From positions 1,293,095 to 1,357,094 of the forward strand of contig CBDFKL010000006.1 of the NCBI GenBank assembly GCA_965248825.1: a DNA stretch of 64,000 bases, read 5' to 3'. The notes beneath the pieces were generated by a model, which was given only the letters and a program-made list of their open reading frames with translations, ran no database searches and was not told the DNA's origin. A program made the position numbers and the translations under genes. Every line of letters begins with the position of its first letter. Positions within the stretch are counted from its first letter, which is position 1. The stretch is from Alphaproteobacteria bacterium. GTDB lineage: Bacteria; Pseudomonadota; Alphaproteobacteria; UBA828. Shown here one piece after another: positions 2,254 to 6,269 of this stretch.

Positions 2254-3159
2254 TCACTCGGGAGCCAGCCCGCAACTGACGCCGCCGTCGATCGTGAGCG
2301 CGATGCCGGTGATCCACTGCGCCTCGTCCGAGGCGAGGTAGACGAAGCCGCCGGCGATGGAGGCCGGGTCTCCGATACCGAGGGGATGGAGCTTCTCAAG
2401 CCGCGCCTTGAATCCTTCGGGATCGTCGAGCTGGGACAGGTGGTGGTCGACCATCGGCGTCTGGACCCAGCCGGGGCAGATGCAGTTGACCCGGATCTGG
2501 TCCTTGGCACCGTCGAGCGCCAGGCACTTCGTCAGCATGACGACAGAGCCCTTGGAGGTTCCGTAGGCTACCTGACCGGGGGTTCCGATGAGCCCGGCGA
2601 TCGAGGCGGTATTCAGGATCACGCCGCCGCCGCGCGCGCGCATGTGGCCCCAGATCGCCTTGGCGGCCCGATAGATGCTGGTGACGTTGACGTCGATCTG
2701 ACGGTCCCAGTCCGCGCTCTCGACCTCCTCCACGGTGCCGATCACGGCCTGGCCGGCATTGTTGATCAGGACATCGACATGGCCGAGCGCCTCGATCGCG
2801 CCCTGGACGAGCCCGGTCACGTCGTCGTCGCGCATGACATCGGCCTCGATGGCGATCGCGGTGCCGCCCGCGTCCTCGATCGCACGCACGGTGCCGACAT
2901 TGTCGTCGGCGCTGAGGCCCGCGCACACGACCGCGGCGCCTTCCTGCGCGAAGCGCAGCGCCGTCGCCCGGCCGATGCCGGAGCCCGCGCCGGTGATGAT
3001 CGCGGTCTTGCCGTCGAGCCGGCGCTGCGCGTGCTCGCCCGGCCCGGTCCCGCTTCCGATTTCGGTCACCCTACCCTCATATCCCAAACCGCCGCCAAGG
3101 CTATCAGCGTCCCGCCGAACAAGCACGTCGCAAGCGCGAAGCGCGGGGGCGTGGAACAT
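2254..3159 (-). CDS. Short-chain dehydrogenase/reductase (SDR) family oxidoreductase
   Basis: Rossmann motif GKTAIITGAGSGIGRA, NNAG motif and catalytic YGTSKGSV (YxxxK) are present. It lies immediately upstream of the dehydratase on the same strand (probable operon). The start is uncertain (first Met at aa 46 of the ORF; a GTG nearer the TGxxxG motif is possible). Confidence 0.75.
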   Translation of the reverse strand: MFHAPALRACDVLVRRDADSLGGGLGYEGRVTEIGSGTGPGEHAQRRLDGKTAIITGAGSGIGRATALRFAQEGAAVVCAGLSADDNVGTVRAIEDAGGTAIAIEADVMRDDDVTGLVQGAIEALGHVDVLINNAGQAVIGTVEEVESADWDRQIDVNVTSIYRAAKAIWGHMRARGGGVILNTASIAGLIGTPGQVAYGTSKGSVVMLTKCLALDGAKDQIRVNCICPGWVQTPMVDHHLSQLDDPEGFKARLEKLHPLGIGDPASIAGGFVYLASDEAQWITGIALTIDGGVSCGLAPE

Positions 3160-3364
3160 CGTTGAGACCGGGAGAGAGGAGGCTCGGACCCTGCGGGGCT
3201 GACGGCGGCACGCGGCTTCGTCGCGATCGCGGCGCGTCAGCCGGCTTCCAGCGGGTTCAATATGGTCAGCCCTTCGAAACCGGCCGCTTGGCAAAGACGA
3301 CGATCTGCGCAGACAAATGTCAAAGGCGCCGGCACGCTGTGACGAACCGTCAGACAGCCGGCGA
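3155..3364. repeat. Direct repeat copy A (about 210 bp, about 90% identical to 4061..4272); contains a remnant vapC 3' end
   Basis: Near-identical string to copy B (aacatcgttgag…gcgatcgcgg…ttccagcgggttca…gacaaatgtcaaaggcgccggcacgctgtgacgaaccgtcagacagccggcga). On the minus strand it encodes …VCADRRLCQAAGFEGLTILNPLEAG*, i.e. the VapC C-terminus with one amino-acid change. Confidence 0.8.
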
Positions 3365-3380
3365 TCTCCTCGGTATCCGG

Positions 3381-3728
3381 TCAGTCTTCGAGGAGCCGGG
3401 TCAGCATATGACGGACGTGATCCTGACCACCAAAGAACACCGCCAGAACACGGATAGTCCGACGCGCTTCATCGATATCGAACCAGTAGATCGCCCGGTC
3501 GATCGTCAGATGCCGCAGACCGGGCAGAATGTCGTCATGGCTTTCGCCTCGGTGGGGCGCGGTCAGGATGCGGTTCGCGGCCGCGCGGATGTCCAAAACC
3601 CGCGCCTCGGCATTATCAAACGCGGCTTCCACGCTCTCGCCAAAGCCGAGGTAGTTGTCGAAGAGATGGTCGAAGATCAGTCCGAAATCGCGCTCGGCCT
3701 CCGCCGAGAACTCAAGACGGAAGTCCAT
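3381..3728 (-). CDS. parE: ParE/RelE-family type II toxin
   Basis: 115-aa protein (MDFRLEFSAEAERDFGLIFDHLFDN…RVLAVFFGGQDH…), typical ParE size and fold signature. It overlaps the upstream antitoxin gene by 17 nt. Confidence 0.8.
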   Translation of the reverse strand: MDFRLEFSAEAERDFGLIFDHLFDNYLGFGESVEAAFDNAEARVLDIRAAANRILTAPHRGESHDDILPGLRHLTIDRAIYWFDIDEARRTIRVLAVFFGGQDHVRHMLTRLLED

Positions 3729-3987
3729 GCGAGCGGCGCTTCGCGGCGATCACGTCGGCCAACCGGCTATCCATCCGCTCCCCGCTAATGAACTTGCGCT
3801 CCCGGCGGCGGGCCAGAACCTCGCGCAGCGCCGTGAGTTCCAGCTCCTCGGCTTCTATCCGCTGGCGCAGCAGGTCCATGCCCTGTTGCAATACGGCGCT
3901 GACGCTGGAATAGCGCCCAGCCTCCACCAATGTCCTGGCGAAGGCGTGTTGCTTGTCCGTGAGCGAGACCGAAGATTTGATCGTCAT
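3712..3987 (-). CDS. parD: ParD-family (RHH/CopG-like) type II antitoxin
   Basis: The start was set at MTIKSSVSLTDKQHAFARTLVEAGRYSSVSAVLQQGMDLLRQR…, the characteristic ParD antitoxin N-terminus. It lies upstream of and overlapping parE. Confidence 0.8.
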   Translation of the reverse strand: MTIKSSVSLTDKQHAFARTLVEAGRYSSVSAVLQQGMDLLRQRIEAEELELTALREVLARRRERKFISGERMDSRLADVIAAKRRSHGLPS

Positions 3988-4008
3988 AGGTGCTCTCTTT
4001 GACAGCGA

Positions 4009-4027
4009 GGTAGCACCTGGTAGCACC
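4009..4027. promoter_or_regulatory. Tandem direct repeat GGTAGCACC-T-GGTAGCACC just upstream of parD (candidate ParD operator)
   Basis: A 9-nt unit is repeated twice with a 1-nt spacer, 20-40 nt upstream of the parD start on the minus strand. ParD antitoxins autoregulate through repeat operators. Confidence 0.3.
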
Positions 4028-4060
4028 GACGTCAATATCGACCACCTCGCGAGAGCGTAT

Positions 4061-4272
4061 AACATCGTTGAGTTCGAGAGAGAGGGGGCTTGGACCCTGC
4101 GAGGAGCCGACGGCGGCCCGTGGCTTCGTCGCGATCGCGGCTCGTCAGCCTGCTTCCAGCGGGTTCAGTATGGCCAGCCCTTCGAAACCGGCCGCCTGGC
4201 AAAGACGACGATCGGCGCAGACAAATGTCAAAGGCGCCGGCACGCTGTGACGAACCGTCAGACAGCCGGCGA
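4061..4272. repeat. Direct repeat copy B (about 210 bp); overlaps the authentic 3' end of vapC
   Basis: See copy A. Copy B spans vapC codons for …CADRRLCQAAGFEGLAILNPLEAG* plus about 85 nt downstream. Confidence 0.8.
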
Positions 4273-4597
4273 GCTGGAGGGCGTCATAAGTCCTGAGCGG
4301 GTGGGAGTCGAGCGACCGAGCGGCCTCCTCGATCACCGCCGAGCTTGACGGCTGCACGAGATACAATGATGACCTGTCTTCGTCGATCTGCTTGAGGATT
4401 CGATTGGCGTCCGGCCCCGAGATGTCACCCTCTCGCTCACGCCTGCGGATTGCCGAACGAGCCTCGAGGAGGGAGACGTCCAGGATGATGATGTGGCCGT
4501 CGCCGAGAGCCTCCGTCAGATCGAGCAGCGCCGCGGTTCCCTCTTCCTCGATGTAGAGCTTGATCAGCGCGCTCGTGTCCAAATAGACGCTCGCCAT
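4145..4597 (-). CDS. vapC: PIN-domain VapC-family type II toxin (ribonuclease)
   Basis: 150-aa protein with N-terminal MASVYLDTSALIKLYIEEEG (PIN acidic-residue signature DTSALI) and a size typical of VapC. Confidence 0.8.
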   Translation of the reverse strand: MASVYLDTSALIKLYIEEEGTAALLDLTEALGDGHIIILDVSLLEARSAIRRREREGDISGPDANRILKQIDEDRSSLYLVQPSSSAVIEEAARSLDSHPLRTYDALQLAGCLTVRHSVPAPLTFVCADRRLCQAAGFEGLAILNPLEAG

Positions 4598-4606
4598 AGA
4601 CCTGGA

Positions 4607-5257
4607 TCAGTGCCTGTCGTTGAGGACGGTGTCGGCGATCGAGCCGCCCCGGATGCGTACCGGCTTGAAGCCCGTGCCGCGTCGGCGGGAGTCGGGCTGA
4701 AATCGCGGATGTTTCCGATTGACCCGTATTGCGGTGATCGGGTGCAGCGGCTGATTCGGGTTGGGGACTTGGCTGGTCAGGATCAGGCGCTGTTCCGTCG
4801 CATGGCGCAGCAGGGATCCGCTCGCCCTCGGATCGCGAGCCCAACCGTGGCCGCTTTCGGGAAGAAAGTGATCGCGGAACCATGTCAGGCCGACGAACGG
4901 TCGCACGCCTTCGGCAGTCTTGAGCTCGGCGATGAGTTGGTCCATGGCGGTCTCGACATCGACCGTGTCGGCCGGTCCCTCGAAACGGTTGCCGCCGGAC
5001 TCGCGCTCGGCGGCTTCGTGCTGAGGTGTTTCAAGCGGAACGAATTTGATCATCACGACGCACTTGTCGGGGTCGAAATAGCCGGCAGACGCGTCCTCGC
5101 GGATTTTCCTCTGGGAATCCGCGTTGTGGATGCTGACCTGGGGGTTGCGGTCATCGACGGGCAAATGCCGGAGCCCCTGCAATTCGCTCGGAAGGGTTAG
5201 AGCGGGCAGGCTGGCGAGACTTTCCTCGATGTCCCGCTGCAAGTCGGCAATTTTCAT
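4607..5257 (-). CDS. Uncharacterised 216-aa protein in the antitoxin position upstream of vapC (no recognisable antitoxin fold)
   Basis: It ends 9 nt before the vapC start on the same strand. The coding looks real (GC3-biased, no low-complexity run), but it is three times longer than normal VapB and has no RHH/AbrB/Phd-like N-terminus that I can recognise. Confidence 0.5.
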   Translation of the reverse strand: MKIADLQRDIEESLASLPALTLPSELQGLRHLPVDDRNPQVSIHNADSQRKIREDASAGYFDPDKCVVMIKFVPLETPQHEAAERESGGNRFEGPADTVDVETAMDQLIAELKTAEGVRPFVGLTWFRDHFLPESGHGWARDPRASGSLLRHATEQRLILTSQVPNPNQPLHPITAIRVNRKHPRFQPDSRRRGTGFKPVRIRGGSIADTVLNDRH

Positions 5258-5271
5258 TTTTTCTCCTATTT

Positions 5272-5290
5272 TTCTAGCAAATTACTAGAA
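5272..5290. promoter_or_regulatory. Perfect inverted repeat TTCTAG-N7-CTAGAA in an AT-rich divergent promoter region
   Basis: ttctagcaaattactagaa lies in the about 200-bp AT-rich spacer between the 216-aa/vapC operon (minus) and the SDR gene (plus), directly upstream of the 216-aa gene start. Confidence 0.35.
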
Positions 5291-5456
5291 ATTTATAAGA
5301 TCGCGCAATTTACCAGGTGCCCAGGCCCCTATGTCAAGCTCTTTGCGGCATGCGGTGGTCGGTCCCATGCGCCTCCGCCTGCGCCGATCCGTCGCGATGG
5401 TTGACTCGGTGCCGCGCGAGACGATAGGCCCGGCGGGCGGCATGGGGAGCGGCACC

Positions 5457-6269
5457 ATGAGGTTCCAGGGAAAATACGCGATCGTGACCGGCGGCGGCCG
5501 CGGCATCGGCCGCGAGATCGGGCGCCGGTTCGCGGCCGAGGGGGCGCATGTCGTGCTCGCCGATATCGACGGGAGCCGCGCCGACGAAGCCGCAGCCGAG
5601 ATTGGCGCCGCCGGCGGCCACGCCGCGCCCTGCGCGGCCGATCTCGGCACGCCGGAAGGGGCCGCGCACCTGTTCGAGACGGCACACGCCCGTTTCGACG
5701 GGCGCCTCGACGTCCTGATCAACAATGCCGGGATCGCCCATCACGGCGCCTTCCTGGACCTGACGCTCGAGGATTGGGAGCGGGTCTTGCGCAACAATCT
5801 GACCAGCGCGTTCCTCTGTGCGCAGAGGGCGGCCCGGATCATGGCCGAGCGGGGCGGCGGGCGCATCGTCAATATCGGCTCGATTTCGGGGCAACGCGGC
5901 AGTTATGGCCGCACCGCCTACGGCGTCACCAAGGCGGGCATCCATCAGATGACGCGAATCATGGCGGTCGAGCTCGGCCCGCGGAACATTACCGTCAACG
6001 CGATCGCGCCCGGTCCGATCGATACCGGCATCACCAGCTTCGGGCCGGATCAGGAACGCCGTTACCTGGAACGCATTCCGCTCGAGCGCTTCGGCCAGGC
6101 CCGCGATGTTGCCGGCGCGGCGCTGTTCCTGGCCAGCGACGAGGCGGCCTATGTGACGGGCAGCGTGGTAAATGTCGATGGCGGCTTCGATAGCGCGGGG
6201 CTCATTTTCAGCTACACTGAGCTGACCACGGTCAAGAGCGATATCCGCGACCCAACGAAGAGCGATTGA
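5457..6269 (+). CDS. SDR family oxidoreductase (FabG-like 3-oxoacyl reductase type)
   Basis: Contains GKYAIVTGGGRGIGREIG, NNAG and YGVTKAG (YxxxK). The start was moved to MRFQGKYAIVTGG (aa 43 of the ORF). Confidence 0.8.
   Translation: MRFQGKYAIVTGGGRGIGREIGRRFAAEGAHVVLADIDGSRADEAAAEIGAAGGHAAPCAADLGTPEGAAHLFETAHARFDGRLDVLINNAGIAHHGAFLDLTLEDWERVLRNNLTSAFLCAQRAARIMAERGGGRIVNIGSISGQRGSYGRTAYGVTKAGIHQMTRIMAVELGPRNITVNAIAPGPIDTGITSFGPDQERRYLERIPLERFGQARDVAGAALFLASDEAAYVTGSVVNVDGGFDSAGLIFSYTELTTVKSDIRDPTKSD

Follow-up and report, generated by a model that had tools for sequence, protein, structure and literature searches.

Does a VapC-type toxin gene that is preceded, in the place of an antitoxin gene, by a 216-codon gene of no recognisable family form a toxin–antitoxin (TA) module with that gene, and what kind of antitoxin would it then have? 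The question is raised by a locus in a 64,000-nucleotide stretch of DNA, here called the window, from an Alphaproteobacteria bacterium of the UBA828 lineage (GenBank assembly GCA_965248825.1, contig CBDFKL010000006.1, positions 1,293,095 to 1,357,094). The original prediction had reported a PIN toxin gene with a same-strand gene for a 216-residue protein 9 nt upstream of it, and had offered a fused or novel antitoxin, a third component of the chaperone-addiction type or an unrelated partner as explanations for the latter. Both open reading frames (ORFs) are present exactly as it said, and we consider it probable (roughly 0.7) that together they make up a type II VapC TA module in which the 216-residue protein is the cognate antitoxin, a member of a new modular family. 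The option of a novel or fused antitoxin is supported by the conservation of the pair, the co-evolution of its members, the upstream position of the partner gene, a predicted winged helix, a conserved tail that is predicted to be disordered and palindromes upstream of the genes. The features of the pair are:

4145–4597, minus strand: vapC-type PIN toxin gene, 150 aa, intact, with a PF01850 match and 518 homologues
4598–4606, minus strand: inter-gene spacer of 9 nt, TGA-TCCAGGTCT-ATG, the modal spacing of the family
4607–5257, minus strand: putative antitoxin gene, 216 aa, of an unclassified family (stop codon at 4607–4609 included)

A conserved pair of genes

The downstream gene of the pair encodes a PIN domain protein (Pfam PF01850, E = 1.4e-8, 35.8 bits against a gathering cut-off of 23.6) that has all of the canonical acidic residues (D7, E45, D105 and D128), and some close ones among its 518 homologues are named "type II toxin-antitoxin system VapC family toxin" at NCBI; no solved relative was detectable by sequence in the PDB. 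By sequence it is thus a small, stand-alone VapC-type PIN domain that has kept its catalytic acids. The 216-codon gene lies first on the same strand and in the same frame, and starts at an ATG (5255–5257) with an AGGAG at 5263–5267 upstream of it. Translational coupling of the PIN gene to the 216-codon gene across the spacer is likely, since the PIN gene has no clear Shine–Dalgarno sequence of its own. The shared frame might suggest programmed readthrough from one gene into the other, but this was rejected, as in about one third of the related loci the length of the gap is not divisible by three.

The 216-residue protein has no Pfam or NCBIfam match at E ≤ 1, and none in PADLOC or among PDB sequences; a profile built from 103 diverse members of its family likewise gave zero matches to PDB sequences. 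A search of a large database found at least 186 homologues, nearly all 211–223 aa long and none with a Pfam domain, and every named one is called "hypothetical"; an exhaustive profile search gave 525 family clusters at 50% identity. When the 103 diverse members were scanned with Pfam, extra domains appeared in two longer proteins only (DUF7662 in protein P0233 and a weak 2_5_RNA_ligase2 match in one member), and a literature search found no paper on DUF7662. The near-constant length of the homologues, the number of clusters and a confident predicted fold (below) show that the gene is real.

Is this family regularly found beside a PIN gene? One genome per species was scanned, and 57 loci were obtained, all from metagenome-assembled genomes of Dehalococcoidia, Acidobacteriota (Bryobacterales/Terriglobia), Binatia, Thermodesulfobacteriota, Alphaproteobacteria and Gammaproteobacteria. 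A homologue from the same PIN clade lies downstream of the 216-residue homologue in 53 of these, with a gap that is nearly always 2–11 nt and has a mode of 9 nt (exactly 9 nt in 25 of 52 loci, and 2–11 nt in most of the others); one of the 53 PIN genes is truncated by a contig end, and the four unpaired loci are fragments or a decayed copy. The distance matrices of the two families are correlated with r = 0.90, a value that none of 2000 Mantel permutations reached. The pairing is far beyond chance, and the 216-residue family and its PIN clade strictly co-occur and co-evolve, which is the conservation across genomes that the original prediction had proposed as a check and which refutes its suggestion of an unrelated partner.

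Among the 57 loci, no further gene family is a regular neighbour of the pair; the next commonest flanking family is present at 12 of them, apparently through synteny among close relatives, and no SecB-like gene of the kind that accompanies toxin–antitoxin–chaperone systems recurs beside the pair. A small conventional vapB overlooked in another frame between 4598 and 4900 had been named as a finding that would overturn the first interpretation, and none is there: the sizeable ORFs in the other frames and on the other strand of 4560–4950 are Pro/Arg/Gly-rich shadow frames with no Pfam or other family match. With neither a third conserved gene nor a small antitoxin ORF present, the idea of a chaperone-addiction component is not supported either. 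The region 2900–5600 gave zero Rfam matches at E ≤ 1, either for an RNA element or for an RNA antitoxin.

Predicted anatomy of the 216-residue protein and its constant tail

An AlphaFold2 model of the 216-residue protein was built with 105 homologues, and residues 97–216 were also modelled separately with a more diverse alignment. The modelling, which had been suggested with the original prediction, gave a confident winged-helix core and divides the protein into four parts (pLDDT, predicted local distance difference test score):

5030–5257, minus strand: N-domain, residues 1–76, pLDDT 82–92, two helices and a beta-hairpin
4964–5029, minus strand: acidic linker, residues 77–98, pLDDT below 50, predicted disordered, variable columns in alignments
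4700–4963, minus strand: winged-helix domain, residues ~99–186, helix-helix-helix-beta-beta, pLDDT above 90, contains R128 and N166
4610–4699, minus strand: C-terminal tail, residues 187–216, pLDDT 51–59, contains R215, proposed toxin-binding segment

The predicted elements of the N-domain are helices at residues 3–15 and 24–31 and a hairpin formed by residues 37–45 and 66–74, and its conserved residues are E11, R50, R53, A56, P63 and F72. In the full-length model the domain of three helices and a beta-hairpin spans residues 99–180, and it is the separate model that gave the values above 90 throughout its core and those of 51–59 for the last ~30 residues. Near-invariant columns are clustered in the winged helix and the tail, and R128, N166 and R215 are the sole residues that are invariant across the diverse family. 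The tail of the window protein reads F197-x-P-V-x-I-R-G-G-x-I-A-x-T-V-L-x-D-R215-H, and the family motif is F197-x-P-[VI]-x-I-R-G-[GE]-x-[IL]-[SA]-x-T-V-[LI]-x-x-R215-R. Foldseek places residues ~99–186 closest to PadR, MarR, LmrR and VanR winged helices (probability 0.99–1.0, rmsd 2.3–3.5 Å, E ≥ 0.046), and we take this part of the protein to have a predicted winged-helix fold of the DNA-binding type. The earlier statement that no helix-turn-helix (HTH) could be recognised thus holds for sequence searches, and gives way at the level of structure to a winged helix predicted in the C-terminal half.

Relatives of the protein with other domain arrangements were found upstream of PIN genes that all belong to the same clade (E = 1e-58 to 1e-72 with the hidden Markov model of the clade), at gaps of 1–24 nt for the variant genes. 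With the window protein they make up five architectures, all with the same tail end:

N-domain, linker, winged helix and tail: the 216-residue protein of the window
N-domain and tail: P0237 (loci L065 and L066), and also the L058 form described below
two N-domains and tail: P0272 (locus L063, 2501–3172)
winged helix and tail: P0247 (locus L067)
longer N-terminal region (DUF7662 and a weak GIY-YIG-like match), winged helix and tail: P0233 (loci L068, 2501–3646, and L069)

A free-standing gene for a 74-residue N-domain lies just upstream of the P0237 gene in L065 (2258–2482) and L066. The N-domain is thus an accessory module that can be single, tandem, free-standing or absent among relatives. 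Among the short forms, P0236 and P0153 are orphans, the former with no adjacent PIN gene and the latter next to an unrelated VapBC pair of the AbrB type. The tail, and no other segment of the protein, is common to every PIN-linked architecture, and it is therefore the constant element. In type II antitoxins, neutralisation is usually the task of a segment that gains structure only on binding the toxin and that often covers the active site (PMC4803016). The tail, as the sole constant segment and one that is predicted to be disordered as is usual for antitoxins (PMC4803016), is for these reasons the likely PIN-binding segment, with the invariant R215 as a candidate active-site blocker.

Proposed mechanism, upstream region and rival explanations

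A TA module of this kind could work as follows. The two genes would be co-transcribed from the AT-rich promoter and probably coupled in translation over the 9-nt spacer. The last ~30 antitoxin residues (F-x-P-V-x-I-R-G-G-x-I-x-x-T-V-L-x-D-R-R/H), unstructured alone, would become ordered on the surface of the PIN domain and occlude the acidic active site there, plausibly by way of the penultimate residue R215. The winged helix, the N-domain or both would bind the palindromic operator TTTCTAG-N7-CTAGAAA and so repress the operon, and loss or degradation of the antitoxin would free the RNase. That the two proteins bind each other, that the antitoxin neutralises the toxin, binds DNA and is labile, and that the PIN protein is toxic, we infer from the sequences and models above. 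The relevant upstream features of the window are:

5271–5291, palindromic: perfect palindrome TTTCTAG-N7-CTAGAAA, between the TTGACA hexamer and the Shine–Dalgarno sequence, candidate operator
5332–5337, minus strand: TTGACA, a −35-like hexamer; many of the related loci listed also have a TTGAC-type hexamer upstream

These lie in an AT-rich stretch that is unusual for a genome of ~70% GC. In many of the related loci listed, a TTGAC-type hexamer is followed by GATAAT/ATTATC, TATCTA/TAGATA and ATCTAG repeats that are often palindromic; the palindromes of L006 and L016 have 12-nt arms, against 7-nt arms in the window. The hexamer of the window also overlaps the ATG at 5331 with which the longest ORF of a divergent short-chain dehydrogenase (SDR) gene (5331–6269, plus strand) begins, and if that ORF does start at 5331, a 73-nt intergenic region is common to both genes.

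Several observations weigh against the TA reading or parts of it, and the first group concerns the operator and promoter. A strict sigma-70 scan found no full promoter upstream of the 216-codon gene of the window, and the −10 candidate (TAAATT at 5307–5312) is weak. TATCTA/TAGATA is present in 20 of 35 non-redundant upstream regions (shuffle mean 3.3, maximum 9) and ATCTAG in 13 of 35 (shuffle mean 1.4, maximum 5), and ATTATC is likewise enriched upstream of homologues. This enrichment speaks for an operator, but the shuffle controls ignore shared ancestry, and several of these words are similar to −10 boxes. The variants of L063 and L065, which have no winged helix, keep operator-like words after TTGACA, and L068, which has no N-domain, has no such words upstream. 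Recognition of the operator may therefore depend in part or wholly on the N-domain; L067, also without the N-domain, has one operator-like word in the 61 nt examined upstream.

The second group concerns partner genes that are damaged beside an intact PIN gene. Two metagenomic contigs, L058 and L059, are syntenic with the window, down to the SDR and dihydroxy-acid dehydratase genes nearby. L058 is 96–98% identical to the window in DNA, and its PIN protein, 94% identical, comes from an intact gene with the catalytic residues. Its partner gene (3062–3388) has lost residues 80–187 through an in-frame deletion at a TCAGC microhomology, which joins the N-domain to the tail in a 108-residue protein, so that the full-length partner is gone; the upstream palindrome is degraded. 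This form fits the proposed role of the tail. L059 is 87–92% identical to the window in DNA, and its partner gene (3342–4034) is frameshifted by +1 near codon 143, next to a full-length PIN gene with the catalytic residues. If this frameshift is no assembly error, an intact PIN gene is tolerated there without a tail, which is the main counter-evidence to strong toxicity; such a state of the locus would suggest decay, silencing, weak toxicity or rescue in trans in that genome. The damaged genes of the two contigs may represent TA decay in progress or, for L059, an assembly error.

Other features of the loci are those of a mobile element. One copy of the module (L031) comes from a record labelled as a plasmid and another (L054) from a 24-kb record, genomic contexts vary among the 57 loci, positions 3200–5400 of the window have a GC content of 57–65% against 68–74% in the flanks, and a ParD-like module adjoins the pair there. 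By these signs the module behaves as a mobile two-gene unit, as TA loci typically do.

Could the pair be a sensor–effector module in defence or stress response rather than a plain TA system? Here the tail would hold the PIN nuclease inactive and the N-domain or winged helix would detect a trigger, for example part of a phage or foreign nucleic acid, and set the nuclease free, in the manner of phage-sensing antitoxins described recently; neutralisation would be the same as in a TA module and the biological role alone would differ. The partner exceeds the usual size of VapB by a factor of more than two, its extra domains are exchangeable (including DUF7662 and the weak GIY-YIG-like match in P0233), and the module is horizontally mobile and lies within a small island of TA genes, all of which would suit such a role, as would the growing number of ties between TA systems and phage defence (PMC10440598). 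However, PADLOC-DB v2 gave zero matches for either protein at E ≤ 1, no defence gene is a recurrent neighbour in the 57 loci, no relative of the module was found in a collection of viral contigs, and none of the results indicates a ligand or trigger. We regard a role of this kind as unlikely.

A wider version of the same thought, in our view rather unlikely, is that the family consists of modular regulators of one PIN clade, in which a universal PIN-blocking peptide at the end of the protein tethers the nuclease to interchangeable sensor or DNA-binding modules. The modules would be the N-domain, tandem N-domains, the winged helix and the DUF7662-containing region, and the nuclease would be released by different inputs, for example infection by a phage, damage to DNA or a metabolite. 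Were this true, the proteins would form a new sensor–antitoxin or defence family that is common in uncultured bacteria.

It is quite improbable, next, that the 216-residue protein acts as a transcription factor, or as a subunit that binds nucleic acid and gives specificity, and is co-expressed with a non-toxic housekeeping or RNA-processing PIN RNase, with no TA relationship at all. The winged-helix fold of the partner is what such a protein might have, the PIN genes of L059 (frameshifted partner) and L058 (internal deletion) are intact and apparently tolerated without a full-length partner, and copies of the partner without a PIN gene exist (L060, L064 and L013). Against this, the spread over phyla is patchy, resembles horizontal transfer and comes with varied contexts that are unsuited to a housekeeping function; the feature that stays constant over the architectures is the disordered tail and not the DNA-binding fold; the PIN protein is small, stand-alone and of VapC type with all catalytic acids; and TA loci commonly leave behind decayed copies and orphan remnants. 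Finally, that the true antitoxin is encoded elsewhere (by a small ORF, an RNA or a chaperone-like third gene) and the 216-codon gene is a bystander is effectively refuted by the mere 9 nt between the genes, the shadow-frame nature of the ORFs in 4598–4900, the lack of Rfam matches and of a recurrent third gene, and the co-evolution of partner and PIN protein; no observation was made in its favour.

Relation to known systems and the neighbouring cassette

How does the putative TA module compare with those already described? Characterised VapB antitoxins have ~70–90 aa and an N-terminal domain of the ribbon-helix-helix, AbrB, Phd/YefM or HTH type (PMC4803016). The present pair resembles VapBC systems (FitAB, Shigella and Rickettsia VapBC, and the M. 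tuberculosis pairs) in its stand-alone ~150-residue PIN toxin with four acidic residues, in the partner gene directly upstream on the same strand, in a partner made of folded domains and a disordered C-terminal segment, in its promoter palindromes, and in its mobile, patchy occurrence beside other TA genes. It differs in that the partner has 216 aa and no antitoxin family match by sequence, and in that its predicted winged helix is in the C-terminal half, after an extra N-domain and an acidic linker. It thus has the PIN toxin with its acidic residues and the conserved upstream partner of a VapBC system, and its antitoxin lies outside every recognised VapB class and size, in which respect the module departs from the classical definition.

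That PIN toxins can have winged-helix partners, and that antitoxins can be longer fusions, was noted earlier (Makarova 2009, PMC2701414). The COG2442/DUF433 winged-HTH antitoxins and their longer fusions (Rv2018–Rv2019) likewise combine a PIN toxin with a predicted winged-helix antitoxin and have multi-domain versions. Pfam contains a DUF433 model, and in contrast to those antitoxins the 216-residue protein has no Pfam match at E ≤ 1; any kinship would be at the fold level only, and the tail motif and N-domain are specific to the 216-residue family.

The best structural matches to residues ~99–186 are PadR/MarR repressors (TA0346, VanR, LmrR, Rv3488 and ZitR, with ~80–90 aligned columns), but identity to them is only 8–19%, there is no Pfam PadR or MarR match and the Foldseek E-values are not significant. 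Unlike PadR proteins, the 216-residue protein has a disordered tail in the place of a predicted C-terminal dimerisation helix. With neither the Pfam PadR match nor the dimer architecture, it does not belong to the PadR family, and the likeness is at the fold level only.

Antitoxins of the AbiEi type have a winged HTH and a second domain in ~200–290 aa, their N-terminal winged HTH autoregulates, and the toxin with which they pair is the nucleotidyltransferase AbiEii. They are large two-domain antitoxins like the present one, and antitoxins of ~200 aa thus have precedent; they differ in that their toxin is not a PIN protein and their winged HTH is N-terminal, and the 216-residue protein has no AbiEi family match in Pfam or PADLOC.

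The putative antitoxin family (~525 clusters at 50% identity) is uncharacterised; neither Pfam nor NCBIfam has a model for it, and its members are annotated as hypothetical only. It is dedicated to one VapC clade and has spread horizontally over at least six distantly related groups, mostly of uncultured bacteria. Recognition of the family would improve annotation, because these VapC genes now look like orphan toxins. Its natural variants are in effect a ready-made deletion series that points to the ~30-residue C-terminal peptide as the putative PIN-neutralising element, and a tail of this length offers a simple design for a PIN inhibitor peptide. No concept is overturned by these findings, and new antitoxin families for known toxins are to be expected.

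A second TA-like pair lies directly downstream of the PIN gene (3381–4065, minus strand). A ParD-family antitoxin ORF (3712–4065, with a probable true start near 3987; PF03693, E = 5.9e-7; TIGR02606, E = 1.8e-9) is overlapped by a 115-residue ORF (3381–3728) that has no Pfam match and a weak likeness to ParE1 (PDB 8c24, E = 0.48), and that probably encodes a divergent toxin of the ParE/RelE type. This ParD-like cassette is flanked by a direct repeat of ~226 nt (3142–3367 and 4048–4275; ~91% identical, with one 2-nt indel), each copy of which consists of the last ~43 vapC codons and ~95 nt of downstream sequence. Since each copy contains the end of vapC, a truncated 3' remnant of vapC is left at 3237–3367, and it translates to IAGCLTVRHSVPAPLTFVCADRRLCQAAGFEGLTILNPLEAG followed by a stop. 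L058 has both copies of the repeat, and L059 has one copy and no ParD-like cassette; judging from these arrangements, the cassette either was gained with the duplication or was lost in L059 through recombination between the repeats.

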